A DNA stretch of 64,000 nt from Candidatus Aminicenantes bacterium (GCA_963843505.1 CAWJKR010000009.1:102506-166505), one strand, 5' to 3'. Numbered from the stretch's first letter, positions 1-25,638 are shown. A program made the numbers and translations. The notes: generated by a model not told the origin, from the letters alone.

Positions 1-1960
1 CGGCCGGCGCCAGGGCGCTGACGCCGCCCGTCGTCAACGCCGTCCTCGGCGGGATCGAATGGGCGCCGGACGGGCGCCGCATCGTCGTCCCGCTCGTCCC
101 GGAGGGCCGCGGCCCGGCCCCCGTCGCGCCGCGCGTCCCCGTCGGCCCCGAGATCCAGGTCTCGGGCGGCGCGGAAGCCAAGGCCGCGACCTACCAGGAC
201 CTCCTCAAGAACGCCTTCGACGAGGTCCTCTTCGACTATTACGCGACGTCCCAGATGGCCGTCGTCGATGTCGCCGCGGGCGACGTTCGCAAGATCGGCA
301 AGACCGGGATCTTCGATTCGATCTCGGTCTCGCCGTCGGCGGAATACCTGCTCGTCGGGCGGATCAAGCGGCCCTATTCGTATTCCCTGCCCGCGGACGG
401 CTTCGCGCACTCGATCGAGGTCTGGGACATGGGCGGCGCCCTCGTCAAGATCGTCGCCGACCTGCCCACGGAGGAGGGCGTCCCCATCAACGGCGTCCCC
501 AAGGGCCCGCGCAACATCAACTGGATGACCCACAAGCCGGCGACCCTCGTCTGGACCGAGGCCCTCGACGAAGGCGACCCGAAGAAGGACGCGCCCTTCC
601 GCGACCGGTTCCAGACGCTCGACGCCCCGTTCGCGGGCGAACCGAAAGAGATCCTCAAGCTCAAGGAGCGGGCCGCCGGGATCTCGTATTTCGCGACGCC
701 GGGCAAGGTCCTGGCTTCCCAGAGCGAATGGAAGAGGAGCTGGCGAACGACCTTCCTCGTCGATCTCACGAATCCCGCCGCCGAACCGGTCAAGATCTGG
801 GACCTCGAGCACGCGGGACCGGTACAACGACCCCGGCCGGCCGGTGACGACGAGCCTCAAGACCGGCGAGCGGGTCATCCTCCAGGACAAGGACTGGATC
901 TATCTCTCCGGGGCGGGCTCTTCGCCCAAGGGCGACCATCCCTTCCTCGACCGCATGAACCTCAAGACGATGAAGGTCGAGCGGCTCTGGCAGTGCCAGG
1001 ACCCGGCCTATGAGACCTTCGTCGATTTCGCCGGCGCCTCGCGGACGAAGTTCATCACCAGCTACGAGACGGTGACCGATCCGCCGAACTACTATCATGT
1101 ACGACCTCCGCTCGAAGAAGCGGACGCCCCTGACCGACTTCAAGGACCCCGCGCCCCAGCTGACCGGGATCAAGAGGGACCGCATCACCTACAAGAGGGC
1201 CGACGGCCTCGAGCTCAGCGGCACGCTCTACCTGCCCGCCGGGCCATCAGCCGGGCACGCGCCTGCCCGTCGTCATCTGGGCCTATCCCATGGAGTACGA
1301 CAGCGCGGCCGACGGCCGGACAGGTCCGGGGCTCGGTCAACCGGTTCACGTTCTTCCGCGGGACGTCGCAGCTGTTCTTCGTCACCCAGGGCTACGCCGT
1401 CCTCGACAACGCCGAGATGCCCGTCGTCGGGACCCCCGAGACGGTCAACGACACCTTCGTCCAGCAGATCGTCTCCAACGCCGAGGCGGCCATCCGCAAG
1501 CTCGACGAGATGGGCGTCGGCGATCCGAAGCGGGTCGGGGTCGGCGGCCACAGCTACGGCGCCTTCATGACGGCCAACCTGCTCGCCCACTGCGACCTCT
1601 TCGCCGCCGGGATCGCCCGCAGCGGCGCCTACAACCGGACCCTGACCCCGTTCGGGTTCCAGAGCGAGCGGCGGACCCTGTGGGAAGCGCCGGAGACCTA
1701 CATCAAGATGTCGCCGTTCATGAACGCCGACAAGATCAAGGACGCCCATCCTGCTCATCCACGGCATGGCCGACAACAACTCCGGCACGTTCCCCATCCA
1801 GTCCGAGCGGCTGTTCGCCGCCCTGAAGGGCTTCGGGGCGACGGCGCGGTTCGTCTATCTGCCCTACGAAAGCCACGGCTATTCGGCGCGCGAATCGGTC
1901 CTCGACGTCCTGGCCGAGATGTTCGAATGGTTCGACAGGTACGTGAAGAACAGAAAGTGA
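1..1960 (+). CDS. Prolyl oligopeptidase / dipeptidyl peptidase (S9) family serine peptidase; 5'-partial, frame broken by several 1-nt indels
   Basis: Recognisable sequence runs through three + frames (track ORFs 255-1013, 844-2103, 1097-1570, 1766-1960). GGHSYG nucleophile elbow at about nt 1545. PILLIHGMADNN (Asp) and YESHGY (His) near the C-terminus. Stop TGA at 1958-1960. Confidence 0.7.
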
Positions 1961-1967
1961 ACAACGG

Positions 1968-2002
1968 ATATCCACAGACTTTGTGCATAACCCTGTGGAA
2001 AA
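1968..2002. promoter_or_regulatory. Cluster of three DnaA-box-like 9-mers in the AT-rich spacer upstream of surE
   Basis: ATATCCACA (1968-1976, 8/9 to TTATCCACA). TGTGCATAA (1982-1990, reverse complement TTATGCACA, fits TTWTNCACA). TGTGGAAAA (1994-2002, reverse complement TTTTCCACA, fits TTWTNCACA). Confidence 0.3.
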
Positions 2003-2099
2003 ACGCGGAAAGGGATATTCTAAGAGCTTGTCAGACGCTGAGTTTTGATGAATTGCACAAGAGGTTGTGCAGCGCGCCGCTCGGCGTGAGGAGAGAGCG

Positions 2100-2981
2100 A
2101 TGAGGAAGCGGCGGCTTCGCGGCCTGGGGACCGTCGTCCTGGCCCTCGCATTCGCGGCGGCGTGCGCCGGGCCTTCGGCGCCGCCGGCCTCGGGGCCCCT
2201 TCGCATCCTGGTCACGAACGACGACGGCATCGAAGCGAAAGGGATCGCGGTCCTGGCGGAGGCCCTCCGCGCGCTGGGAGAGGTGACGGTCGTCGCGCCG
2301 GAAAGCGGGCGCTCGGGATCGAGCCACGGCGTGACCTCGGAGCATCCCATCCGCGTCAGGGAGGCCGACCGCGAGGGGAGGCGCTGGATCGCCGTCGACG
2401 CCCTGCCGGCGACGTGCGTCCGCCTGGCCGTCGAGCGGCTCCTCCCCGTCCGGCCCGACCTCGTCGTCTCGGGCATCAACCGGGGCGAGAACCTGGGAAC
2501 GGTCACGTTCTATTCGGCCACGGTCGGGGCGGCCCGGGAGGCGGCCTTCCTCGGCATCCCCTCGATCGCCGTCAACCTCGCGGCCTCGGAAGACATGGAC
2601 TACGGCCCGGCCGCCGCGGTGACGGCCGCGGTCGTCCGGGCGCTCGGCCGGAACGGGATCGCCCGGGGGACCTTCCTCAACATCAACGTCCCGGCCCTCC
2701 CCCTGGAGCGGCTGAGAGGCGTGCGGATGACGCGTCAGGACACCCGGGCGCCGGTCGACTTCTTCGAAAAGGAGGCCGGCCCCGACGGGTCCGCGGTCTA
2801 CAAGCCCCGCTGGGAGCACCTCGAGCCGGGCGCGGAGGGCACCGATATCTGGGCCGTTCGCAACGGCTACGTTTCGGTGTCGGTGTTCGGCTTCGACCAA
2901 TCGGCCGCCGCGCCGCCCGCCGCCGCCCTGGCCCTCAGGCGCCTCGAATCCCTCCTCATTGACTTCAAGGGGGTTCGCTAG
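2100..2981 (+). CDS. surE: 5'/3'-nucleotidase SurE with an N-terminal lipoprotein-type signal
   Basis: LRILVTNDDGIEAKGI...VVAPESGRSGSSHGVT is the typical SurE N-terminus. It is preceded by MRKRRLRGLGTVVLALAFAAAC (lipobox-like). AGGAGAG lies upstream of the ATG at 2100. Confidence 0.85.
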   Translation: MRKRRLRGLGTVVLALAFAAACAGPSAPPASGPLRILVTNDDGIEAKGIAVLAEALRALGEVTVVAPESGRSGSSHGVTSEHPIRVREADREGRRWIAVDALPATCVRLAVERLLPVRPDLVVSGINRGENLGTVTFYSATVGAAREAAFLGIPSIAVNLAASEDMDYGPAAAVTAAVVRALGRNGIARGTFLNINVPALPLERLRGVRMTRQDTRAPVDFFEKEAGPDGSAVYKPRWEHLEPGAEGTDIWAVRNGYVSVSVFGFDQSAAAPPAAALALRRLESLLIDFKGVR

Positions 2982-3014
2982 TAGGATTGCCGTATCGGTT
3001 CCGGGGGAACGGCA

Positions 3015-5501
3015 TTGACCAAATGCCCTCAGTGTTCGGGGGAAAACGCGGACACCCAGCGCTTCTGCGGGGATTGCGGCACTCCGCTCGCGGGCGAACT
3101 TCGGCCTAAAACGCCAGTCCCCGCCGCCGACGAGACCCTCTCGCTCCCCTCGCTCGGCCTCGATGCCGGCGAGCTGTTCGCCCGCCGCTACCAGGTGGTC
3201 GAAGAGCTGGGCATGGGCGGGATGGGCCGCGTCTACCGCGTCCTCGACAAGAAGCTCAACGAAGAGATCGCCCTCAAGGTCATCCGTCCCGACGTGGCCT
3301 CGGACCGCGGCATCATCGCGCGCTTCTCGTCCGAGCTCAAGCTCGCCCGCCAGGTCGTCCACAGGAACGTCGCCCGCACGTTCGACCTCAACGAGGAGCG
3401 CGGCGTCCCCTACATCACCATGGAGTACGTCAAGGGCGAGGACCTGAAGCGCCTCATCCGCAAGGTCGGACGCCTGTCCCCCGGCCAGGCCGTCCCTATC
3501 GCCTGCCAGATCTGCGACGGGCTCGCCGAAGCCCATCGCCTGGGCATCGTCCATCGCGACCTCAAGCCCCAGAACGTCATGATCGACGAGGAGGGCCAGG
3601 CGAAGATCATGGACTTCGGGCTGGCCCGCCTGCTCGCCCAGGACGGCCGGGACGGGCCTGGGCGCCCGGAGCGGCACGCCGGCCTATGTCTCGCCCGAAC
3701 GGATCGAGGGCAGGCCCGCGGACGCGCGGGCGGACCTCTATTCCCTGGGCGTTCTCATGTACGAGATGCTGACCGGCCGTACGCCGTTCAAAGCGGAGAG
3801 CCTCGGAGAGCTCCTCGACATGCACCTCCACGAAATCGCCGCGGGACCCGCGCGAGCTCAATCCCGGCATCCCGGCCGAGCTCGGCGCGGTCGTCATGAA
3901 ATGCCTGGAGAAGGACCCTGTCCGGAGATATCAGAGCGCGACGGAAGTGCGGGAAGCCCTCGGCTGCCTGACGGAGGGCGTCGCCGCGTCGGGGCCCGGG
4001 AAGCGGAGCTGGCTCCCGGTCGCGGGAGCCGCCGTCGTGCTGGCGATCGCCGTCGCGGTCGTTCTCCTCGTCGCGCCGCCGGACTCATGGAAGCGCTCCG
4101 TGGCCGTCCTGCCCATCGAGGACACCGGAATGGAGGCGGCCAACGCGAATTTCCTGGCCGGTCTGCAGAGAGAGATCACCGCCCGGCTGGCGGGGATCTC
4201 CAACCTGCGTGTCGTGCCCGAGTTTTCGGTGAATTCCTACGATCTCAAGGGCAAGCCCTTGCCGGAGATCGGGAAGATGCTCGGGGCCCGCTATCTCGTC
4301 AGGGTGACGCTGGCCATCGAGGGCAACAAGGCCGACGCCAGCATCTACGTCATCGAGGCCGCGAAGGACGCGAGCCCCGAGCCGATGACCTACACCAAGG
4401 ACCTCTCCGGCTATCGCGCCCTGCAGGACGATATCGCCGGCCTGATCGCCAAGGCCCTCGGCGTCGATCTCGCCCCGGAACAGCTGAAGAGGCTCCGCCG
4501 TCGGGGGACGGACAACATCGAGGCTTACGGCCTGTTCCTCGATGGAACGAAGGTCCTTAACGAAGCGGACAGCGTGGAGGACGTCCGGCTGGCCATCGCG
4601 ACGCTGGGCCGGGCGGTCGAGATCGACCCGAACTACGCCTTGGGCCATTGGGGGCTCGGCTATGGCTACGAGCATCTCTATTACCGCGCGGAGAGCGCCA
4701 AGGACCCCGCGGTCCTGGAGAAGATGTTCGAACATCTCAATCAGGCCTCCCAGCTGGACCCGTCGTTCGCCGAGACGAACCTCGGCCTCGGCTGGTACTT
4801 TTTCAACAAGGGCGACAATGCGCGGGCCTTCGGGTCCTTCCGCAAGGCCTTGAAGCTCGAGCCCGACAGCGACATCGTCAATCGCGACTCCGGCGCGTTC
4901 CTGATGAGCATCGGTCTTTATGACCAGGCCATCCGGTACCTGGCCAAGGCGGCCAAGCTTTCGCCCCGCGATCCGCTGCCCTTGACGCAGATCGCCCAAT
5001 GCTGGCTTTTCCTGGGCCGCTGCGAGAGGGCCCTGACCTATACCGGGAAAGCGCTCGCCCTCCGGGAGAGCGACCCCGAGGCCGGCATCATCCATACGGT
5101 CCTCCTGCTCCTGTCCGGACGATCGGACGAGGCGGACCGCCAGATCAGGTCCATGGAGCGCTTCAAATTCAGCCCCGACAGACTCCCGTTCCTCCGGGAG
5201 GCCGCGGCGGCTTTGCGGGAGGGCCGGGGAAAGCCCTACATCTTCCGCGCCGAGCGGCCGGCGCTGACCCCGCAGGGAACGTACATCTATCTCTCATTCG
5301 GCATGAAGGACGAGGCCCTGGCCAATATCGAGGCCGGGATCGAGAAGGGGCTCTTGAACGGCATGTACCACTACTCTTATCCCTCGCTCATCAGGAATCC
5401 CCTGGTACGAGGACCTCCGGGGCGATCCTCGCTTTCAGGCCATCGTCAAGCGGCAAAAAGAGCTCTATGACAAAGAGCTCAAGGCGTTCGAAAAACTTTA
5501 A
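3015..5501 (+). CDS. Ser/Thr protein kinase: N-terminal zinc ribbon, one TM segment, C-terminal TPR region; three apparent frameshifts (~3640, ~3845, ~5400)
   Basis: CPQCSGENADTQRFCGDCG zinc ribbon. HRDLKPQNVMI and DFGLARL motifs. TPAYVSPE and MKCLEKDPVRRY continue in other frames. TM segment WLPVAGAAVVLAIAVAVVLLV. TPR-like repeats up to a stop at 5499-5501 after a final shift. TTG start at 3015. Confidence 0.8.
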
Positions 5502-6314: not shown

Positions 6315-6998
6315 TCAGCGCTGGAACTTGTAGCCCAGCCACGGCACCGTGACCAGGTGCTTCGGCGCGGCCGGGTCGTCCTCGATCTTGCGCCGCAGGT
6401 TGTACATGAACGTGTCGATCGTCCGCGTCGTCGGAAATTTCTCGTAATCCCAGACCTTGTTGAGGATGGTCTCCCGGGAGACGACCTGGCCCTCGCAGCC
6501 GGCGAGGAGCCGGAGCAGGCTGAACTCGCGGGCGGTCAGGTGGAGGTCGTTCCCGGCCTTGGTCGCGATCTTCTTCCGGAAATCGATATTCACGCTCCCG
6601 AAGATGAGGTCCTCGATCTCCGGGATCTCGGGCTTCGACCGCCGCAGGATGGCGTGGACCCGGGCGATGAACTCGTCGGTGCCGAAGGGCTTGGTCATGT
6701 AGTCGTCGCCGCCGAGCTCGAGCCCGAGGACCTTGTCGATCTCCTTCTTCTTCTTCCCGGACAGGACGATGACCGGGACCTGGCGCCCGGCCTCGCGGAG
6801 GCTCCGGCAGACCTCGAGCCCGGTCATGGCCGGCATGACGACGTCCATCACGATGAGGTCGAAGGCCCCCTTGAGCGCCTTGTTCAGGCCCTCCCGGCCG
6901 TCCCCGGCCTCCGCCACGCCGTAGCCCTCGGCCTCCAGGGCCGCCGCCAAGGTCTGCCGCAGGACGCGGTCGTCGTCGATGATGAGGATCTTTTTCAT
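6315..6998 (-). CDS. OmpR/PhoB-family response regulator
   Basis: MKKILIIDDD...DLIVMDVVMP receiver domain. C-terminal winged helix (LTAREFSLLRLL...LGYKFQR). It is the 3' tail of the spurious 1024-aa track ORF 6315-9389. Confidence 0.9.
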   Translation of the reverse strand: MKKILIIDDDRVLRQTLAAALEAEGYGVAEAGDGREGLNKALKGAFDLIVMDVVMPAMTGLEVCRSLREAGRQVPVIVLSGKKKKEIDKVLGLELGGDDYMTKPFGTDEFIARVHAILRRSKPEIPEIEDLIFGSVNIDFRKKIATKAGNDLHLTAREFSLLRLLAGCEGQVVSRETILNKVWDYEKFPTTRTIDTFMYNLRRKIEDDPAAPKHLVTVPWLGYKFQR

Positions 6999-7000
6999 GG

Positions 7001-9389
7001 TCACCGCCTTCCGGGAAATTTCAGGGTCAAGGTCGTTCCGCGCCCCGGGACGCCCGCGACGGCGATCGCGCCGCCGTGGGCGTCCATGATGTGCTTGACG
7101 ATCTTCAGCCCCAGCCCGACGCCCTTCGGGTCGTGCCGGGCCGCTTCGGGGGCGCGATAGAAGGCCTCGAAGACGCGTTCGCGGTCTTCGGGCGCGATGC
7201 CGATGCCGTTGTCGCTGACGCTGATCTCGGCCCCGTCCGCCGTCGCGGCGAGCCGGACGGCGACGCGCTTCCGGCCGGCGCTGTACTTGACGGCGTTGTC
7301 GATCAGGTTGAACAGGGCCTGGCGGACCGCGTCGGGGTCGGCCTCGACCGGGACGGGCCCGTCCGGCGTCTCGACCTCGAGGTCCAGGTCCTCCTCCGCC
7401 GCGGCCGACCGGACGACCTCGGCGACGCCCGCGACGACGGGCTTGAGGTCGACCGTCCGGATCTCGTAGCGCTTGGAGTCCTGCTCGATGCGCCCGAAAT
7501 CGAGGACGTTGTGGAGGTAGCGGCCGAGCCGGCCGCACTCGCCGGCCATGAGCTCGAGGAGATGGTCCCGCCGCGACGCGTCGGCCACCTTGCCCGACTT
7601 GAGGAGCTCGGAGATCGCCTGGAGCGACGTCATCGGCGTCCTCAGCTCGTGGGACACCGAGGAGATGAATTCCGTCTTCAGCCGGCCGATCTCCTCGAGC
7701 TTCTCGCGGGAGGCCCGCTCGTAGATGACTTCCTCCTGGAGACGGATCCGGCGCAGCGCGGCCGACGACTCCGCGGCCAGGGTCCGCAGGAGCTCCCGGT
7801 CCTGGTCGCTGAACTCCAGTCCCGATCTCTTCGGGCCGATGAAGATCCAGCCGGCCGGCCCGGCGTCGCCGAGAGGGACGGGCAAGGCCGTGGCGAAACC
7901 GTTGCGTCTCGAGCGTCTCGGGCGGAAGCGGCGCGCCCGAGCCGGAGGGCGCGGCCAGCCGGGCGGCGATATCGTCGTCGATCCCGCTCCGGAGGGCGAG
8001 CCCCGAGCTCCCCCGCCCCGCGGCCGGGATGAAGGCGCCGGTCTTTTCGACCGGCAGGATGTCGGCCAGCGTCTCGGAGAGGCGGTCCAGCAGGTCCCGG
8101 TCGCTGTGGGCCCTTTCGGCCGCCTCCGTGAATCCGAGAACGGCCCGGCGGTAGTCGTAGCTCTTGCGGAAGAAGGCCCGGTCGACCGCGACCTGGAGCC
8201 GGGACCGGGCGGGCGCGAAGACCAGGGCGGCGATGAAGGCCGAACCGACGGGGATCCACCGTCCGCCCGCTCCCGAGCTCGCGGAGAAGAGCGCCTTGAG
8301 CCCTTCGATCGAGGCCAGGTAGACGCCGACCGTGACCATCGTCAGGAGCGAATAGACGACGCCGCGGTTGATGATCAGGTTGATGTCGAGGAGCTTGTAC
8401 TTCAGGATGGCGAAGGCCAGGGCCAGGGGAAGGACGGCGAAGAAAGCGCTGGCCGCCTCCTCGTTGAGGAGAGGGCGCCATCCGGCCGCGATCGGCAGGG
8501 AGTAGAGGAGCATGAACGGGCCGAGGCCGGCGACCATGCCGTAGAAGACCCAGCGGACCTGGTCCCGCTTTTCGCGGGAGGGCGCGGCCCGGAGGGCCCG
8601 GAAGAGCGTGACGAGCGCCGCGACGCAGACGGCGGCGAAGAAGATCCGGAAGACGCCGAAGTGGACTCTCAGGCGGAAGATCTCGATCGAGGGCCGGAGG
8701 AGCCCGGCGACGAGAACGGCGCTGAAGAAGCCGCCGAAGAGAAGGGAGACGATCCAGAGGAACGGCCCTCCGGGAAGCCGCTCGCGGTCCGTGAACGTCC
8801 GGACGAACCTGAGCAGGCCGACCGGGGTCAGCGTATAGGCGAAGAAGAACAGGACGCCCGGGACGAGATGCAGGGGCCGGCCTTGGACGCCGTACCATTC
8901 CCCGCTGATCATCACCGCCGAGGAAAAAGCCATGCTCAGCCAGTAGAACACGCGCGCCCGCCGGTCCCCGGGGCGCAGGATGAAGACGCCGAAGCCGATC
9001 AGGAAGCCGAAGACGCCGGTCAGGAGAAAGATGTAAGGCATGCCCCCTTTCTCATAGTAGGGCACGAGCCGTTCGGTCACCGCCAGCTCCCGGCCGTCCT
9101 TGGCGACGACGAACTCGATCGGATCGCCGATCCGGTGATGGGCGGCGATGAACTTGAAATCGGACTTGCGGTCGCGGACCTCGAAGCCGTCGATCTTGAC
9201 GACGTCGGGGGGCAGGAGGTCGGGATCTTGGCCGCGCGGCAGGGCGACGCCCGTCGCCCGCTCGATCGCTTCCCGCGGGACGGCCGGCCGGCGGAGCAGG
9301 CCGGCGAAGCCCAAAACGCTCACGGCAAGGATGAGGATCCCGGCACAGAGAGAAAAATAGAAGCCCGCTTTGCGGCGTCCCACGTTCAT
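7001..9389 (-). CDS. Multi-TM sensor histidine kinase; one apparent frameshift near 7890
   Basis: N-terminal region has many TM helices. H-box [11 protein letters not shown]-box [10 protein letters not shown]-boxes DNGIGI / GVGLGL. Stop is 2 nt upstream of the response-regulator start. Confidence 0.85.
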
Positions 9390-14904: not shown

Positions 14905-15069
14905 GCCCCCCAGCCATACCTAAACCGGCCCGCAGACGCGGACAGGCAGCAAAAATATTTTTCGCCCTTTGTGAAAAATGACGTGTTCCTGCGGTCTTTA
15001 TCATTTGAAGAGTCCCGACGAACGGCCGGGATCCTTGGCCCAAAGAATGTTTCCGGAGAGGAGGAAAGC

Positions 15070-18000
15070 ATGTTGAGGACATCCAGAAGCTTGGTTTCGA
15101 CCTTATTCTTTCTCGTCGCCTTAACGGCAGGAATCCATCTCCAGGCCCAAAACGGGATCTATGACCGCATCGGCATCGTTCCCGGCCACGGCTCTCACGG
15201 GTCCCTCCCTGAAGAAAATATTGACCTCTTTACAGGGAACGTTACCCTTCGGTACAGGGACGTCTACCTTCCGGGCCCTTATGGGCTCGACGTCGAGGTC
15301 TGGCGTGTCTATAATTCTAAAATTCTGACAGATTGGCAACCTGGACAGCAACCGGCGATCCAGGCCTATCATCAATCGTGGGTCGGCATGGGTTGGACGA
15401 TGCACATGGGAATGGTCCATGCCTATTCCTCGAACGCTCCGGTTATCGAATTCCCGGACGGCCGGCTCGAGCGGGCCTATCCCAACAACTGCGGACTCGG
15501 AGCGAACGTCTACATGACCCGCGATTTCCTGAAATACGATAAGACCTATGCCTATCCTACGATCTACCCCAAGGTCTATTTTAAAGATGGGGTCGTCTGG
15601 ACGCTCGGCCTGACGGCCACGATCACCAGGGCCGATGGGACAACCGACCCGGTCCGGCTGGTAACGAAGATCGACAGCTCCTTCGGCCAATCGATCACGA
15701 TCGAATACAACACCATTGTCGCGGGCCAGTACCCGACACTTAAAAAGATCACTGACGGTTTTGGACGGATAATCACCTTTACTTCAAGCGGAACCCCGAG
15801 AAAGCTTACCCAAATATCCTATACGGTGACCCGCCAGTACGCGCAATCCCAAGTGAGGAGACTCTATTACTCCGTGGGGGCGTTCGGGGACGGAAGCGGA
15901 TACACCAGGCTCAATAGCTTTCAGCCGCCGGAAATAGCCCCGGTCCAGTTCGAATATGAGAACGGTGATTCGGATCATTACGAACTCAAGAAGATGACAA
16001 CGAGTTTCGGCGGAACCCTTGAGTACTCAATTAACGACCACCTGTTCTACAGCGGCGCGACCCAGCTGAATTCGAGGGTCATGACGCAGAAAAGGATCAA
16101 GTTCACCACGGATCCCGCCGAAGTGCCCAGCACTTGGAATTATGTCTATCCTGACTATAACGGCGTGCCGACGGGCATGGTCAATATCGACGGCCCCGTT
16201 TATGATACGAGCGTATCCTACAACGCATACGACCCTGCCTACCCCTGGAGGCAGGGGCTGATCCAAGCACTTGGCTATGGAGACGGCAGCTATCAGGAAA
16301 GCTACGAATGGACCTCGCATGAGATTTCGAGCCAGGTCTTTGCGCCGCTCCCAGCGTCAGCCCTCAGGCACAAGGAAGGCGGCGCGGTCTTCAAAGAAGA
16401 AACCCTTTACGAAATCCCCAGCTACACGAAATACGGCCTTCCATCGAAAGCCCTCAGCTATATCGGCGGCAGCGAGACTCCGCTAAATTATCGGACGGTC
16501 TTTTACAATTTCGCGGGGCGTCCGAACTGGGAGCTGCGCTATATGCTCGCCTACCCTTGTAACGAGTCTCAATTCAGCGGGAGCGGAATGAAGCTCAAAG
16601 AGAAGAAAACGACATACTATGATGATACGGATACGTGGAAATGGGGCGCTATCAAAAAGATCAGCATCTGGAAAGAAGATTCAACTTATGCGGATTGGAC
16701 GCATTCTTTGGTGCTTGATACTCAAGGGAAGAAGATTCAGGTCTTCATTACAGGCCCCCTCATCGGGTCAAATACCGAGGTGGTATCTTCATATGGACTT
16801 GAGGAGCAACTAAAGAAGGGGGACGTCGGAAGCGTTATAAGGACGATTTCCCCATACGATAGCGCCATAAGCCGCGAATCCTACCCGACGGGCGGCGTAC
16901 TCAACTATACGTATGATCTCCTTGGGCGGGTCATCGCCGTCGACTGGCCCACCGGCCGATACGACGAATCGATCACTTGGCCGGCCGGCGAGAACAGGTC
17001 GATATCAACCAGAGGCGCGACGGGAAGCCAGCACATCCTGACGAAATTCTGGGACGGGCTGGGCCGTGACCTTGGCTCGACCGAGCAGGGGGACGGCACG
17101 ACACTCTATTTCAGTCGAACGCTCGACGCGGAGGGGCGGCTCGTCACCGAATGCAAGGGATCGACGAGCGAGGATCACAAATATCAATATTCCTACAACG
17201 CGGCGGGCGAGATAATCGAGATCATCGACCCCGAAGGGATCACCGATCCCGAAGGCCACACAACGCAAATGACGCTTAACGGGACGACCAAAACGGTCGA
17301 AGATCCGGAGCATCATTCTACGGTTTTCGAATATGAGCATCTTCCCGGACTTCCGACTGAGGTGACGGACCCGCAGGGGCATATCGCGGAATACGCGTAT
17401 GACGTCGAGGGCCGCCTCACGGAGGTCGACTACAACGACGGAGCGAGGATTCATTCCTTCGAATATGATCGGAACGACAATCTCACTTCCGAAACGCATC
17501 CGGAAACCGGGCTTATCTCTTACGTTTATAACGACGAGAATCGGCTGATGGCAAAGACCTGGGGCGCCTCCATAATCCATTATTCCCATAACGGTAGCGG
17601 TCAGCTTTATGCGGTTTACTCGGGAGAATATCCCGATTACGAAGAACAGATCATGTATACCTATGTCGAGGGAAAGCTCATCCGTGTAAGGAGCACCGTC
17701 AAAGGTTGGGACAGGGACCAGATTCAGTATGACCTATGCGGCAACTTGACCCATGAGCGCATCACAATTCCTCCCCTGGCCCCGAAGGACATATCGTATG
17801 TATATGATGGATTCAATAACCTGAGCATGACGACCTATCCTGATCAGCATTGGTCTCTGGTCGGGAGCAACGGGTTGGCCATGCCGGAAACTCTCGCGTT
17901 CGACAGCATCAGCAACTATCTCGTGGGCTCCGCGTCCTACGGGAGCGGCAAGGCCGTGACCGGCTTGGCCTTCACGAGAAACGGCACTCAATTCTCCGCT

Positions 18001-21000
18001 TCGTATCTTCCTTCCGGGCATCTTTCGCAGACGTCCTTGACGCGAAGCGGCGTCACTCTCTATGACGCCTCATACCAATATGACGGCAACGGCAACATCC
18101 TGAGCATGTCGAGCACGTCCCCAGGACCGTCCATGAACGCCGCGTTCGGCTATGATTCTCTCAACCGGCTCACCACGGCGACCTACAGCTCCGGCCGGGT
18201 CGGTGCCTTTGGCTACACTTATGATGAATACGGCAATATGAGAACGGTCCGGGAGAACGGGATCTCTGTTTTCGACAAGACCTATGACTCCGGGAACAGG
18301 ATCACGGGCGATTCCTATGACGCCCGAGGGAATCTCCAATCGGCAATGGGCGAAGACGCGTTCTATCATTGGGACAAGATGAATCAGCTGTCCTCTGTCT
18401 CGAACACGGCCGGCGAGATTCTGGGCAAATATCTCTATGACGAGAGAGGCCTGAGGCTTGCGGCCATGCCGCCTCTTCCGGACATCGATATCTATCTCGG
18501 AGCGCCAAACGAAGGGAACCCGCTTGGAGACGGGACGGGAACGGTAACGCTCGACTGCCCCGTCGGCCAACATGTCGACGCCACATTGACCATAAAGAAC
18601 GGAGGAGACGGGCTCCTCGAGTTGACCGGCTCTCCTAAGGTCGTTAAGAGCGGACCAGATATGAACCAGTTCGAGGTTTTCACCGAACCCTCGTCGCCGA
18701 TCGCTCCTTTGGGGACGACCACCTTCGTCATTCGATTCAGTCCGACCACGGCGGGCAGGAAAACGGCGGCGATATCGATCGCCAATAACGATCTTGATGA
18801 GAACCCGTACGATATCGGGCTGACCGGAAACCTTGAGCCCCCGGAGATCAACATTGTCGACGTGCCTGACGGAGGGACCTGGGACTTCGGATTTATCCCC
18901 GTTGGCCAATCCCAGCAATGGCCTTTCATGATCCAGAATCTGGGGGAGGAAGATCTCGTACTGGACGGCAACCCCAGAGTCCAGATCTCCGGGGACGAGA
19001 TGGGACAGTTCTCAGTCGAGGAGCAGCCGAGCGGGGTCGTGACCGGGCACAGCGCGACCTTCCTCGTAATCCGCTTCTCTCCCATGATGGCAGGTCCGGC
19101 GACGGCTCAGGTTTCGATCCAGAACAACGATTCGGACGAGAACCCCTACAACTTCACCCTGACGGGCGAGGGCCAGGGCGGCTTCGGCATGAAACAGGAG
19201 GAATCCGGACTCGATATCATCTTCCCGGACGGAGACGACACGCTCGTAGCCGGGAAGACCCGAACCATAGCCTGGCGGGGCGCCGAGGCGACAGAGAGCG
19301 TCAAGATCGAGTACTCGACTGACAACGGCAGCACCTATCGTTTGATCGCCGAGAGGGCGCCCAATACCGGCCGCTTCGAGTGGCTTGTGCCTCCGGACCT
19401 GTCGCCCGCCTGCCTCATCCGGATCAGCGCCGCCGACGGCGTGCCGGTCTCTCCGCGCGCCTACGCGATGGAATTCGATCTGAGGACATCTCCGGCCGCC
19501 GGCGCGGAAGAGGTCGAGCGGCGTTTCTCCGCGCGCGCAGCCATCCCCGGCCCGGACGGGCAGACAACCTGGGCGTGGGACTTCACGGTTGCCTACGAAG
19601 AGACCGAAGCCGAAGCGACGGGCGAGGTCGGACCCCCTTCAGGCTGGCGCCATTTCCGCATCGTTTTGGATACGGACCAGGGGCTGGGCTCGGTGTCGAT
19701 CGACGATAAGCCCTTGTTGGCTGATGTGCTTCCAGTTCATTTTGCGTTCCCTTCCGACCGGCCGGAGATCCATTTGACCCCGACGGAGGGGACTTCGGCC
19801 AAGCTCTGGGTGGATAATCTCGAGATCGATTACGAAGACCGGACCCTGGCGCTCCAAAGCGGCGATCGGCTGATTATGGCCCGGCCGGTCATCCGGGACG
19901 GCTTCGATCGTTATGCGGCCGGCGAATTCCCGGAAGCCGGGGGCTGGAAGATCGGCTGGACCGCAGCATCATCCGTAGGGGGATCTGTCGCTGAGGGCGC
20001 CGATCAAGCCGACAAACAGTCCTACGATCAGGGCATCGTTCAGCCGACGGGCACAGCGGGCGAGATCGACGAGAGCGAACGCGTGTCTCCCCTGAGGTCG
20101 TTCAGGATCGAGCAGACCGGCGAGGCCTCCTCGCCGGTCGTCAAGAAGTTCGCCATGCCCGAGAGGCTTCCCTACGACGTGAGCACGGGGAGTTTCTCGA
20201 CCGTAGCCGAGGATGCGGAGCTCGCCGAGCTCATGGACCGGATGCTCGAGGAACGGGCTCAGCCGGAGACGAGCCCCAGGGACGTTCTCTCCGGGAGTAC
20301 TTATCAGGCGGCGCAGCAGAGTCCGGCCCCTCAAGGCGGCGGCTCGATAACGACGCTTTCCGTCCCCAGGACGGGAAGCTTCTACATCTATTCCTTTGAC
20401 GGGCGGCTCCTTGCCGAATACGATATATATGGCACTTGCCTCAGGGACTATATCTACATGGGCAGCCGCCTCGTTGCCGAATACGTCCCGGCCACGGGGG
20501 AGTATTTCTACTACATGCAGGACCAGATCGGCTCGACCCGCGTCGTGACGAACGACTCAGGAACGGTTGTTTACGCCGAGGCTCATGATCCATATGGGGG
20601 GATTCAGAAAACTTGGGTGAATGATTTCGATCCGAAACGCAAGTTCTCGGACAAGGAACGGGACGGGGAGACGGGGCTGGATTATTTCGGAGCGAGGTAC
20701 TATTCGGCGCCGGACAATTCCGAAGGCCACAGGGGTAGCTACAGATGGCTTTCTATTGATCCCAAATTTAACACTTTTGCGGTTCTTGCCGATCCTCAGG
20801 CCTCGAATCTTTATTCTTATTGTAGAAATAACCCATTGTCGCTTCGCGATCCAGATGGCAGGATTGTCATATGTGGCGATCGTGCCGCATTTGAGGCCCT
20901 GAAAAGATCAATTGGGGACGGTACCCTTGCCGATAAGATAACTTGGGATCCAGTGACCGGAATGATATTCGTCGAGGACATTGAAACTAATAATGAGAAT

Positions 21001-21402
21001 TATGAAAGTCTAAAGACCCTGGTGGGATTAGACTCAGTGGTCCGTGTTTCGCTTGTAGATAGACCCAGCTATCAGACGGCGGAGGGGAAAAACGAAGCTC
21101 CTCTCTTTACCTGCAGGATTGACATTGTCGCTGGGGAGAAGATCATAAGTGGCTGGTTTGGCTTAACGGTCTTCCCTAAAGGAGGTAGGCCAGCCGGCTA
21201 CGTTCATGATGGGAGCGATATCCGCGTCTATGTTGCCAGGGGAGTTCTTAGAAACGAAAAATCTGAACAAGCAAGGACTCTTGCTGAAGAATTGTATGGC
21301 CATGCCTTCCTTTATGTTACAGGGAAACCGTTCGAACACGAGTTTACACGCGACGGTTATGTTGAGGCTTATATCGACAAAATAAGGAGAAGGAAATACT
21401 GA
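15070..21402 (+). CDS. Giant RHS/YD-repeat polymorphic toxin with Sec signal peptide
   Basis: GGAGAGGAGGAA RBS and ATG at 15070. Signal peptide MLRTSRSLVSTLFFLVALTAGIHLQA. Many YD repeats (YAYDVEGRLTEVDY, YVYNDENRL, YQYDGNGNI, YTYDEYGNM, YDARGNL). RHS core (DGETGLDYFGARYY...NLYSYCRNNPLSLRDPDG). Uninterrupted frame of about 2110 aa. Confidence 0.92.
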   Translation: MLRTSRSLVSTLFFLVALTAGIHLQAQNGIYDRIGIVPGHGSHGSLPEENIDLFTGNVTLRYRDVYLPGPYGLDVEVWRVYNSKILTDWQPGQQPAIQAYHQSWVGMGWTMHMGMVHAYSSNAPVIEFPDGRLERAYPNNCGLGANVYMTRDFLKYDKTYAYPTIYPKVYFKDGVVWTLGLTATITRADGTTDPVRLVTKIDSSFGQSITIEYNTIVAGQYPTLKKITDGFGRIITFTSSGTPRKLTQISYTVTRQYAQSQVRRLYYSVGAFGDGSGYTRLNSFQPPEIAPVQFEYENGDSDHYELKKMTTSFGGTLEYSINDHLFYSGATQLNSRVMTQKRIKFTTDPAEVPSTWNYVYPDYNGVPTGMVNIDGPVYDTSVSYNAYDPAYPWRQGLIQALGYGDGSYQESYEWTSHEISSQVFAPLPASALRHKEGGAVFKEETLYEIPSYTKYGLPSKALSYIGGSETPLNYRTVFYNFAGRPNWELRYMLAYPCNESQFSGSGMKLKEKKTTYYDDTDTWKWGAIKKISIWKEDSTYADWTHSLVLDTQGKKIQVFITGPLIGSNTEVVSSYGLEEQLKKGDVGSVIRTISPYDSAISRESYPTGGVLNYTYDLLGRVIAVDWPTGRYDESITWPAGENRSISTRGATGSQHILTKFWDGLGRDLGSTEQGDGTTLYFSRTLDAEGRLVTECKGSTSEDHKYQYSYNAAGEIIEIIDPEGITDPEGHTTQMTLNGTTKTVEDPEHHSTVFEYEHLPGLPTEVTDPQGHIAEYAYDVEGRLTEVDYNDGARIHSFEYDRNDNLTSETHPETGLISYVYNDENRLMAKTWGASIIHYSHNGSGQLYAVYSGEYPDYEEQIMYTYVEGKLIRVRSTVKGWDRDQIQYDLCGNLTHERITIPPLAPKDISYVYDGFNNLSMTTYPDQHWSLVGSNGLAMPETLAFDSISNYLVGSASYGSGKAVTGLAFTRNGTQFSASYLPSGHLSQTSLTRSGVTLYDASYQYDGNGNILSMSSTSPGPSMNAAFGYDSLNRLTTATYSSGRVGAFGYTYDEYGNMRTVRENGISVFDKTYDSGNRITGDSYDARGNLQSAMGEDAFYHWDKMNQLSSVSNTAGEILGKYLYDERGLRLAAMPPLPDIDIYLGAPNEGNPLGDGTGTVTLDCPVGQHVDATLTIKNGGDGLLELTGSPKVVKSGPDMNQFEVFTEPSSPIAPLGTTTFVIRFSPTTAGRKTAAISIANNDLDENPYDIGLTGNLEPPEINIVDVPDGGTWDFGFIPVGQSQQWPFMIQNLGEEDLVLDGNPRVQISGDEMGQFSVEEQPSGVVTGHSATFLVIRFSPMMAGPATAQVSIQNNDSDENPYNFTLTGEGQGGFGMKQEESGLDIIFPDGDDTLVAGKTRTIAWRGAEATESVKIEYSTDNGSTYRLIAERAPNTGRFEWLVPPDLSPACLIRISAADGVPVSPRAYAMEFDLRTSPAAGAEEVERRFSARAAIPGPDGQTTWAWDFTVAYEETEAEATGEVGPPSGWRHFRIVLDTDQGLGSVSIDDKPLLADVLPVHFAFPSDRPEIHLTPTEGTSAKLWVDNLEIDYEDRTLALQSGDRLIMARPVIRDGFDRYAAGEFPEAGGWKIGWTAASSVGGSVAEGADQADKQSYDQGIVQPTGTAGEIDESERVSPLRSFRIEQTGEASSPVVKKFAMPERLPYDVSTGSFSTVAEDAELAELMDRMLEERAQPETSPRDVLSGSTYQAAQQSPAPQGGGSITTLSVPRTGSFYIYSFDGRLLAEYDIYGTCLRDYIYMGSRLVAEYVPATGEYFYYMQDQIGSTRVVTNDSGTVVYAEAHDPYGGIQKTWVNDFDPKRKFSDKERDGETGLDYFGARYYSAPDNSEGHRGSYRWLSIDPKFNTFAVLADPQASNLYSYCRNNPLSLRDPDGRIVICGDRAAFEALKRSIGDGTLADKITWDPVTGMIFVEDIETNNENYESLKTLVGLDSVVRVSLVDRPSYQTAEGKNEAPLFTCRIDIVAGEKIISGWFGLTVFPKGGRPAGYVHDGSDIRVYVARGVLRNEKSEQARTLAEELYGHAFLYVTGKPFEHEFTRDGYVEAYIDKIRRRKY
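20860..21399 (+). other. C-terminal variable toxin domain of the RHS protein (about 180 aa, family not recognised)
   Basis: Begins immediately after the DPDG boundary motif of the RHS core. G+C content drops visibly from about 20700 onwards. Confidence 0.7.
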
Positions 21403-21403
21403 T

Positions 21404-21934
21404 ATGAGAATGCTGATATCTTTTCTTCTTTTATTGGGATCCTGCCTGACCGTCCATAATATCGTGGCCTGTGCAGAGGAAGGCTCGCCGATTACAGACG
21501 CAGTGCCGGAGGTTCAAGCGACTATTGAAGAGGATATTATTCCCGCTATTGATGGCAGTCCCAGATTTGATCAGACCGGAAAGGAATGGGAATCCTATCT
21601 CGCGGATATCGGCAAATTCAGAATTGTTCTTACGTTGGACGGATTCAAACTCCGTAACATTTTTGTTCAAGGCAATGCGACCTTCAGCATTGTTTATCAG
21701 TTTTATCTTGGCGAGGATTATCACCCAAAAGACATCGATCTCATATTAGGAGAAGAGCAGCTCGATAATGCGGATGCAGCAACTGTGTGCCTCTCGAAAT
21801 GGACGCTATCTGGCTTCCTTCCAAATAGGAAATACCGTTTGGTCCTACGTTGGGAGCATAACAAAGGCTATATAACGTTAACCATGACCGGGGACGAGAT
21901 GAGCCTCTCAATCAAGCTTAGGGCGCTAATTTAG
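21404..21934 (+). CDS. Putative cognate immunity protein, exported (signal peptide or lipoprotein)
   Basis: ATG lies 1 nt after the RHS stop (TGAtATG). Same low-GC composition as the toxin tip. N-terminus MRMLISFLLLLGSCLTVHNIVACA. No family recognised. Confidence 0.65.
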   Translation: MRMLISFLLLLGSCLTVHNIVACAEEGSPITDAVPEVQATIEEDIIPAIDGSPRFDQTGKEWESYLADIGKFRIVLTLDGFKLRNIFVQGNATFSIVYQFYLGEDYHPKDIDLILGEEQLDNADAATVCLSKWTLSGFLPNRKYRLVLRWEHNKGYITLTMTGDEMSLSIKLRALI

Positions 21935-22003
21935 GGAGGCGCAGGATCTGGGGCGGCGCCTTAATGGCCAGTCCCCCATACTCTCCAGCGGGGCTTTCTC
22001 GCC

Positions 22004-22073: not shown

Positions 22074-25418
<3,345 letters not shown>

Positions 25419-25421
25419 AGA

Positions 25422-25476
25422 CCAGACCTCGGACCGGGAGCACGTACTCAGGTACATGTCCCGCCCCGAGGTCTGG
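25422..25476 (+). terminator. Long imperfect hairpin directly after the BNR-like gene stop (no T-tract)
   Basis: CCAGACCTCGG (25422-25432) pairs perfectly with CCGAGGTCTGG (25466-25476). Inner CGGGA/TCCCG and GTAC-containing pairs lie in the loop. Confidence 0.3.
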
Positions 25477-25638
25477 CTGCGATGGCCCGTTGCCCCCCCG
25501 GGGCGGCCGCAGAGGCCCGAGTTTCCCGACCTGCAGGGTCAAATCCGACTTTTTTTGTAGGAAATGAAACCTTTTCCCGCGGGGAAGCGTCTAAAGGGAT
25601 GTATGAACAGAAAGAAGATATGAAAGAGGAGACAACCC

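Follow-up and report, generated by a model that had tools for sequence, protein, structure and literature searches.

An undescribed family of RHS toxin tips with a putative HExxGH-type metal site and an exported immunity candidate in Candidatus Aminicenantes

Introduction

RHS polymorphic toxins accompanied by an immunity gene are already known, and several described systems resemble, each in part, the one analysed here: a C-terminal RHS toxin tip and a small downstream gene for a candidate immunity protein, found in a 64,000-nucleotide stretch of DNA from a Candidatus Aminicenantes bacterium (CAWJKR010000009.1:102506-166505). This whole stretch is referred to as the window, and its numbering is used throughout. 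WapA of Bacillus subtilis, a monoderm, is one of the Sec-dependent RHS/YD contact-dependent toxins and has cytoplasmic tRNase tips and cytoplasmic immunity proteins. The Aminicenantes protein shares with these toxins an N-terminal Sec signal, a YD shell, an Rhs core, a variable tip, a downstream immunity gene, and the absence of a type VI secretion system (T6SS) adaptor. It differs in that its host is a probable diderm and its immunity candidate is exported, which points to a periplasmic target.

Among peptidases, dipeptidyl-peptidase III (MEROPS M49) represents the one well-known family whose zinc hexapeptide reads HEXXGH instead of HEXXH. M49 enzymes are cytosolic proteins of about 700 residues, in which a second motif, EEXR(K)AE(D), supplies the third ligand. 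The HE[LAG][YF]GH motif of the toxin family described below has the same spacing and the same glycine, a resemblance of motif and not a sign of membership: the tip has 180 residues, its likely third ligand is a histidine 12 residues downstream, and it has no Pfam M49 match.

In terms of function, the closest characterised system is the pair formed by VgrG2b-Cter and PA0261. The C-terminal metallopeptidase (DUF4157) of Pseudomonas aeruginosa VgrG2b is toxic only in the periplasm, its substrate being still unidentified (PMC6899460), and its toxicity is neutralised by the small, downstream-encoded PA0261, for which the signal peptide is needed (Wood et al. 2019, PMC6899460). Like VgrG2b, the Aminicenantes protein would place a small domain of zinc-peptidase type at the C-terminus of a delivery protein, with the immunity gene directly downstream (PMC6899460). 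However, in VgrG2b the motif is a canonical HExxH, the zincin fold has been solved, and delivery is by the T6SS spike, whereas the tip carries an HExxGH-type motif (EELYGH), ends an RHS protein with a Sec signal, and is paired with a TonB_C-like immunity candidate. VgrG2b was absent among the 50 Foldseek PDB matches listed for the tip, and there was no Pfam DUF4157 match.

In architecture, RHS-borne Tox-MPTase and M91 tips come closest (PMC3482391, PMC13556075). The survey by Zhang et al. (2012, PMC3482391) describes Tox-MPTase1-5, HopH1/NleD (M91), and ALF-type domains as metallopeptidase tips of polymorphic toxins, and Salmonella Dublin SED_RS06335 is an Rhs-M91 effector (PMC13556075). Along the same lines, the Aminicenantes tip would be a small zincin-like domain ending an RHS protein, as in Tox-MPTase and M91 proteins that include Bacteroidetes ones with a Sec signal (type II secretion, ‘T2SS-class’). 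Unlike the tip, the Tox-MPTase, M91, and ALF families listed there all carry HExxH; the table rows consulted give no immunity family for metallopeptidase tips, and the text of the survey never mentions TonB. The tip does not fall into the VgrG2b-, Tox-MPTase-, or M91-type families, given the absence of a hidden Markov model (HMM) match, a different motif, and no significant structural match.

The Toxin Tip and Its Family

The tip terminates an RHS/YD-repeat polymorphic toxin gene (14971..21402, + strand; 2143 residues from a GTG), which was delimited by an ORF scan (ORF, open reading frame) and by Pfam and NCBIfam matches. The Rhs-associated core (20587..20859, +; residues 1873-1963; TIGR03696, Rhs_assc_core, E=5e-13) ends in ...NNPLSLRDPDG, and the variable C-terminal domain comes directly after DPDG. 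This toxin domain (CT; 20860..21399, +; residues 1964-2143) is 180 residues long, begins with RIVICGDRAAFEALKR, and ends in ...AEELYGHAFLYVTGKPFEHEF...RRRKY (C-terminal stretch AEELYGHAFLYVTGKPFEHEFTRDGYVEAYIDKIRRRKY). Its extent, as fixed by the ORF and the TIGR03696 boundary, is exactly that given in a first-pass annotation of the window, which had also stated that the tip matched no recognisable toxin family. The latter claim holds for Pfam, NCBIfam, and the PDB, and the family as such is large and spans several phyla.

A word-indexed search found eight relatives of the tip at 40-78% identity, several of them annotated ‘RHS repeat-associated protein’, and the close relatives lie on Aminicenantes-like contigs. 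The profile A1, built from these relatives and searched exhaustively against 1.84 billion representatives, matched 126 representative clusters (E<1e-3), which puts the family at a minimum of 126 clusters at 50% identity. The matched proteins are 200-2290 residues long, and the domain is almost always C-terminal in them. In 89 of 132 family sequences, a D[PS]xG Rhs-core boundary directly precedes the domain. In addition to Aminicenantes, the hosts are Acidobacteriota and Bacteroidota MAGs (metagenome-assembled genomes), and the lineages include Bryobacteraceae, Terriglobales, Vicinamibacterales, and other Acidobacteriota, as well as Balneolaceae and Muribaculaceae, gut members included. Scans of genomes and metagenomes with clade-specific alignments added 50 metagenomic loci with Bacteroidota-type tips.

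The window tip matched no Pfam or NCBIfam family at E≤1, and 50 diverse members of the family are covered by none either. Weak Pfam and NCBIfam matches among these 50 were to Peptidase_M78 (4/50, E≥0.018), DUF5700, and SprT (2/50, NCBIfam); Tox-MPTase2-5, Peptidase_M91, DUF4157, and Peptidase_M49 were not among the Pfam matches at E≤1 for the tip and the 50 members. Profile searches of PDB sequences with the toxin and immunity alignments gave nothing meaningful; GMP synthase, GSK3, and hydrogenase, which appeared at E of about 0.05-0.2, were treated as noise. The toxin family is undescribed in the literature searched (HEXXGH with toxin, HELYGH, TonB_C with immunity). By sequence similarity, the tip is one member of a widespread and hitherto undescribed toxin family.

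Conserved Site and Predicted Fold of the Tip

The first-pass annotation had speculated that a His/Glu-rich stretch of the tip might be a metal site, and this stretch turned out to be the conserved core of the family. In an alignment of 50 diverse members, only G101, E144, and H148 are invariant, and each of V3, G34, N47, L51, Y146, G147, and H160 is retained by at least 90% of the sequences. The family motif can be written HE-x-[YF]-G-H, with [LAG..] at the third position, followed 11-12 residues on by H[DE]. Its forms across the family include HELYGH (51), HEGYGH (17), HEAYGH (12), HELFGH (8), and EELYGH (7). In the window, the putative catalytic or metal-binding motif reads E143-E144-L-Y-G-H148...P-F-E-H160-E161 (21286..21342, +). 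Position 143 is histidine in about 90% of the family and glutamate in the window clade and a few others; the same exchange occurs elsewhere in the family (P0045, P0057, P0068, P0112, and P0146). Recurrence of this swap in separate parts of the family is what one would expect at a position that binds a metal or takes part in catalysis.

An AlphaFold2 model of the tip, built from the 50-sequence alignment, scored a mean predicted local distance difference test (pLDDT) of 96.3 and a predicted TM-score (pTM) of 0.91. In the model, an N-terminal helix and hairpin lead into a multi-stranded sheet; the long helix 134-153 comes next, then a loop that contains H160, and finally a helix at the C-terminus. 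The motif lies on, or just after, helix 134-153, which bears E143, E144, and H148, and H160, followed by E/D, stands 12 residues past H148 in the loop after this helix. As modelled, the succession of sheet, motif helix, and putative downstream ligand is the layout of a zincin.

Foldseek found no match to the tip model with E<0.01 in PDB or BFVD. The weaker PDB matches included anthrax lethal factor (E=0.36) and SPRTN (E=0.96), and those from BFVD were entries named phage ‘peptidase’, ‘Zn-dependent protease’, SprT-like, and metallopeptidase (E≥0.014). Where weak sequence or structure matches share a theme, they are zincins. Judged by motif, topology, and this consistent set of sub-threshold matches, the modelled tip is most likely a metal-dependent, zincin-like hydrolase, with a peptidase as the favoured assignment. 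The structural comparison proposed in the first-pass annotation, run on the predicted tip and immunity structures, gave no significant match to a well-characterised toxin family.

The Downstream Gene and Its Pairing with the Toxin

The toxin gene stops at a TGA (21400-21402), and the ATG of a 176-residue ORF follows at 21404, i.e., after the 1-nt gap recorded in the first-pass annotation. Given this gap, the ORF is probably translationally coupled to the toxin. A Shine-Dalgarno-like sequence, AAGGAGAAGGAAA (21384..21397, +), lies within the last toxin codons, 7-14 nt before the immunity ATG; read from the sequence, AAGGAG/GAAGGAAA is embedded in the final codons of the toxin. The C-terminal ...R-[RK]-Y of the toxin, invariant as RKY in the Aminicenantes clade, overlaps this element (window 21384-21402), and its conservation may in part reflect the ribosome-binding site and not protein function.

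The ORF (21404..21934, +), an immunity candidate by its homologues, its adjacency to the toxin, and its ratio of non-synonymous to synonymous substitution rates (dN/dS), matched no Pfam or NCBIfam family at E≤1; its homologues form 24 clusters. An ORF homologue begins 0-2 nt after every close CT homologue, in the syntenic locus L001 as well as in L002, L007, L008, L009, and L010, and L008 carries two tandem cassettes of CT and immunity gene (CT/Imm). Similarly, all seven Acidobacteriota loci with a downstream ORF match the immunity HMM (E 1e-5 to 1e-17), their tips being 24-54% identical to the scan query, itself an Acidobacteriota-type tip. The pairing of the same domain with immunity homologues, which the first-pass annotation had proposed to look for, is present in all close loci and in these seven. 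Moreover, immunity identity drops from 81% to 27% in step with a fall in CT identity from 79% to 40%. The dN/dS of the immunity ORF is 0.18-0.39, orphan copy included, and that of the tip is 0.29 against its L008 homologue; both genes are under purifying selection. Taken together, these sequence comparisons support the view that the downstream ORF behaves as the cognate immunity gene, whose product would neutralise the toxin.

Immunity genes also occur apart from an intact partner. Orphan copies without a toxin lie next to an ABC transporter in L003-L006, and L010 holds a second, truncated copy. In the Candidatus Aminicenantes orphan P0021 (L003/L004:10001-10663; 63% identity), found beside an ABC-2 transporter with no toxin, the N-terminus has been swapped for another hydrophobic leader, MNCGNILLILITTLMQAQ, and a dN/dS of 0.27 indicates purifying selection. 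In L001 (7453-7998), several stops and frameshifts interrupt the toxin tip, which also no longer contains H160, next to an intact immunity gene, and the toxin of L002 (9457-9996) has one in-frame stop (W to stop). An immunity ORF from an Acidobacteriota locus (L013:1308-1805) ends, over its C-terminal ~35 residues, in ...WQHDEGGPVDQHIHDVEKRTREQFEE, the C-terminal signature of the toxin domain itself; by sequence, this tail is apparently the fused remnant of a displaced toxin tip.

The immunity candidate begins with an export leader (residues 1-24, MRMLISFLLLLGSCLTVHNIVACA; 21404..21475, +), whose maximum Kyte-Doolittle 11-mer is 2.44 and in which an A-x-A precedes EE. The leader calls draw on two features only, hydrophobicity and A-x-A patterns. 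All 23 immunity members have a hydrophobic 11-mer that scores above 2.0 and starts at residues 2-7, compared to 0/201 internal windows of the RHS protein. Similarly, 46 of the 47 Bacteroidota-type loci with a readable CT stop have a downstream ORF with a hydrophobic leader, where ORF starts were allowed from 40 nt upstream to 200 nt downstream of the CT stop and the observed gaps ranged from -38 to +71 nt. Of the two leader types suggested in the first-pass annotation, export signal or lipoprotein leader, the former is supported (23/23 members) and the latter, in the window clade, is not. Close homologues have W, Y, or F in place of Cys14, the cysteine of the LLGSC ‘lipobox’, so that a type-I signal peptide is likelier than a lipoprotein in the window clade, for which the lipoprotein assignment was rejected. 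Lipoboxes do occur in some distant clades, e.g., LLSGC in L011, LSAC in L033, ISGC in L067, and one in L019 with an LPAM_1 match. The first-pass annotation had reasoned that an exported immunity protein implies action in the periplasm or envelope, and the family-wide presence of the leader supports this: as the cognate protein of every clade carries one, the most likely site of toxin action is the periplasm or cell envelope of the target cell. A nuclease or a cytoplasmic target was rejected on the same ground, namely that every cognate protein is exported.

Likeness of the Immunity Proteins to TonB_C

In the AlphaFold2 model of the immunity candidate, a leader helix and a disordered linker are followed by a folded beta-alpha-beta domain (residues 70-172, pLDDT 75-95; 21611..21919, +) that is predicted to be TonB_C-like. 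The linker (residues 25-69) is variable and disordered, with pLDDT below 50 for residues 11-60. Foldseek gave no match to this model with E<0.1. The sub-threshold matches included the FusB C-terminal domain (CTD) 9hi3 (probability 0.92, root-mean-square deviation (rmsd) 3.0 over 74 columns, E=0.31) and further TonB CTD chains, with 6i97_D, 8rd6, 2gsk_B, 1xx3, and 6fip in the top 25 and 1u07 at rank 47. Lectin and pentraxin matches were rejected for their rmsd of roughly 8-18 Å, and only the compact matches to TonB CTDs were kept as a lead.

Profile alignment points in the same direction. With hhalign, the alignment of window-type immunity proteins was compared to the E. coli TonB CTD, checked beforehand as identical in sequence to 1u07_A (P=7e-4), and to TonB_C-type immunity proteins (P=8e-3), and the two alignments share the same register of hairpin, helix, and conserved Trp. 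Among 18 close or Acidobacteriota immunity relatives, one, from Acidobacteriota, matched TonB_C (E=0.018). In Bacteroidota-type loci, 20 of 36 distinct ORFs downstream of the tip are significant matches to Pfam TonB_C (PF03544; best 5e-14). Significant Pfam TonB_C domains were recorded too for L019 and for the lipoprotein cognate to the Balneolaceae tip. An hhalign comparison of the window immunity profile to the L019 TonB_C lipoprotein was not significant, and a phmmer search of the PDB with L019 gave noise only. Of the 36 distinct cognate ORFs of Bacteroidota-type tips (L043-L055, L057-L069), about 16 encode exported proteins of 156-196 residues with no TonB_C match, e.g., the MKGYILMMLTMICQL... 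group, which indicates that the toxin family apparently pairs with at least one further, unclassified immunity family.

We consider the window immunity protein, with moderate confidence, a divergent TonB_C-like domain; the label is kept at this strength because the window protein itself has no Pfam match. Like the TonB CTD (PF03544), it would be a periplasmic beta-alpha-beta domain, aligned in register. Unlike TonB, the ORF has neither a membrane anchor nor a Pro-rich spacer, and its role is presumably toxin binding, not energy transduction. The pairing of the toxin family with exported TonB_C or TonB_C-like proteins has no description in the literature searched, and its recurrence across phyla is the most interesting new fact of this analysis.

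The RHS Shell, Its Leader, and the Delivery Route

The shell of the RHS protein is recognised by Pfam RHS_repeat in four stretches (E=4e-22) and by NCBIfam YD_repeat_2x (E=1e-14), together with a weak Pfam DUF6531 match. Judging from the sequence of a related locus, the true start is probably not the GTG but an internal ATG at 15070 (M34), which gives a protein of 2110 residues: the gene call in L001, which is collinear with the window RHS locus at 88-93% nucleotide identity, begins at the residue equivalent to M34. Starting at M34 yields a typical signal peptide, MLRTSRSLVSTLFFLVALTAGIHLQA (15070..15147, +), predicted from its n-h-c layout. Its highest-scoring Kyte-Doolittle 11-mer, at 2.68, begins at residue 8 counted from M34, and the cleavage site was placed by eye.

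A Pfam scan of the RHS protein found no PAAR, VgrG, or LXG match. The statement of the first-pass annotation that the protein has a Sec signal in place of a PAAR/T6SS-type N-terminus therefore stands, and it extends to the relatives: PAAR and VgrG were found in 0/7 long relatives examined, and long family members combine Sec-type leaders with LTD/DUF6443, SprB, or Ig-like modules and RHS repeats. An insertion of ~650 residues (window 18556-20475, RHS residues ~1196-1835), unusual for an RHS shell, separates the YD-repeat region from the Rhs core. It bears Ig-like domains: two of choice-of-anchor-D/HYDIN type (residues 1196-1400) and one Kre9/KNH-like (1419-1480), with a further ~350 residues that match no family. 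This insertion is kept in L001, and similar Ig modules occur in the relatives P0027 and P0090.

Base Composition and Mobility of the Cassette

A low-G+C tract (20700..21950, no strand assigned) takes in the tip and the immunity gene as well as the final part of the Rhs core. In 300-nt windows, G+C is 0.44-0.50 from about 20750 to 21950, compared to 0.67-0.71 upstream of the RHS gene and 0.67-0.70 downstream of the cassette. The drop reported in the first-pass annotation is real (0.44-0.50 vs 0.67-0.71 in the flanks), yet the whole RHS gene also differs in composition from its flanks. Most 300-nt windows of the RHS body fall in the intermediate range 0.52-0.65; values dip to 0.46-0.49 near 16400-16850 and 17450-17750 and climb to 0.68-0.69 near 19250-19700. 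A chance origin of the tract was rejected in view of the 20-point drop, its coincidence with the cassette, and the presence of the cassette on another backbone in L002.

In L002, the CT/Imm cassette sits on a different RHS backbone, at 81% nucleotide identity, and stand-alone cassettes are found in L007 and L008, a distribution that fits the swapping of tips by recombination. The L007 cassette (67-4713) is an orphan RHS core with CT/Imm, and its protein, P0005, begins within the Rhs core. An IS3-type transposase pair and a Fic-domain gene stand directly upstream of this cassette, a context that suggests a mobile toxin island.

A Working Model and Its Alternatives

The elements described above can be arranged into a working model. 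The RHS protein would be exported by Sec through the leader at M34. By analogy with the RHS family, the tip would be enclosed by the shell until autoproteolysis at the DPDG boundary sets it free. The tip, acting as a zincin-like hydrolase, would then attack peptidoglycan peptides or an envelope protein in the target's periplasm or envelope, with E144 as the catalytic base and H148, H160, and position 143 (Glu here) as metal ligands. The coupled, exported immunity protein would bind and block the toxin through its TonB_C-like beta-alpha-beta domain and so protect the producer and its kin. We regard the whole chain, from Sec-exported RHS toxin through metal-dependent, periplasm-acting tip to exported TonB_C-like immunity protein, as somewhat more probable than not.

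Several observations weigh against this model. The motif is not the canonical HExxH: it is one residue longer, and its first His is Glu in the window (EELYGH). There is no significant sequence or structure match to any peptidase, the best Foldseek E-values being 0.3 in PDB and 0.014 in BFVD, with poor TM-scores, and the geometry of the E143/E144/H148/H160 site is putative. On the side of the immunity candidate, the hhalign probabilities for the match to TonB_C are just 5-26%, and the window protein has no Pfam TonB_C match at E≤10. The stops in the L001 and L002 toxins may reflect decay with retention of immunity, or else long-read assembly errors. Finally, a Pfam scan of 10 neighbouring window ORFs turned up no T6SS gene and no other gene for secretion or delivery.

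The lack of a peptidase match, the H-E-x-x-G-H spacing that departs from HExxH, and an exported immunity protein that would suit any envelope target equally well are also what one would expect if the same E/H/H constellation served a periplasmic hydrolase of other chemistry, e.g., a peptidoglycan amidase or glycosidase-like enzyme, a lipid- or lipid II-directed enzyme, or a phosphoesterase. We hold this to be unlikely, though worth serious attention: the weak matches that share a theme are all zincins, the modelled order of beta-sheet, long motif helix, and downstream ligand is that of a zincin, and HEXXGH works as a zinc site in M49 peptidases. The Glu at 143, where about 90% of the family has His, could instead mark the window tip as catalytically weakened or dead, a decaying or binding-only module whose immunity gene is kept mainly against the toxins of neighbours, as the broken L001 toxin beside its intact immunity gene, the in-frame stop in L002, and the existence of orphan immunity genes might suggest. 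This we find improbable, since the window ORF is intact over 2143 codons, the Glu form is common to at least 12 clusters across the family that retain E144, H148, and H160, the CT has a dN/dS of 0.29, and Glu is a competent zinc ligand.

The remaining alternatives concern the partner protein. Conceivably, the toxin is a protease or binder for TonB-type C-terminal domains, and the immunity proteins are exported decoys of its substrate domain. This reading, which we rate as rather improbable, would explain why the toxin pairs in three phyla with TonB_C or TonB_C-like proteins even though these are not detectably related in sequence; if true, the TonB/TolA-like energy transducers of the target would be cut or sequestered, or TonB would be hijacked for import. 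It is very unlikely that the ORF is no immunity gene at all but an accessory for export or activation, or an unrelated periplasmic TonB-like protein that travels with the cassette. Binding and neutralisation are deduced, TonB_C domains normally serve energy transduction, and some copies lie apart from the toxin, beside an ABC transporter. However, gene order and a coupling of 0-4 nt are kept from Aminicenantes to Bacteroidota, the ORF co-diverges with the toxin (81% to 27% as CT goes from 79% to 40%), CT/Imm arrays are in tandem in L008, orphan copies are typical of immunity genes, and the protein lacks the N-terminal anchor and Pro-rich region of TonB. Lastly, the leader calls, made from hydrophobicity and A-x-A patterns, would also allow the hydrophobic N-terminus of the ORF to be a membrane anchor instead of an export signal, with a toxin, e.g., a nuclease, acting in the cytoplasm. 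We give this hardly any credence: the leaders are short and N-terminal, with Lys/Arg before them in most members, and are followed in different clades by A-x-A or a lipobox (LSAC, ISGC, LLSGC); TonB_C (PF03544) is a periplasmic domain; and the tip shows no nuclease-like match and no beta-beta-alpha-metal element.

Neighbouring Genes

Downstream of the cassette, a BNR/Sortilin-Vps10-type gene (window 22074-25567) is broken over several reading frames; tblastn with the 830-residue L001 product shows at least five frame switches between 22422 and 24871. Either the gene is a pseudogene, or this high-G+C stretch contains a series of indel errors; the adjoining 6.4-kb RHS ORF is intact. Two other window genes are unrelated to the toxin: one encodes a TPR+CHAT-domain protein (41317-43737, -), and the other a 1024-residue response-regulator/Trans_reg_C fusion (6318-9389, -).

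Significance

RHS and other polymorphic toxins are a main source of new antibacterial enzymatic activities, and those acting in the periplasm point to vulnerable targets of the envelope. New RHS tips turn up often, and the polymorphic-toxin concept is unchanged by the present one. The novelty lies in the toxin family, which is undescribed, in its atypical site, and in a class of immunity protein not reported before. The HExxGH-type site is unusual and stands on a confidently predicted fold with no significant PDB or BFVD match, which makes the 180-residue tip a compact, experimentally tractable candidate for a new envelope-directed toxin. Its pairing with exported TonB_C or TonB_C-like proteins suggests that the TonB_C fold may have taken on a new role, that of toxin inhibitor or decoy.

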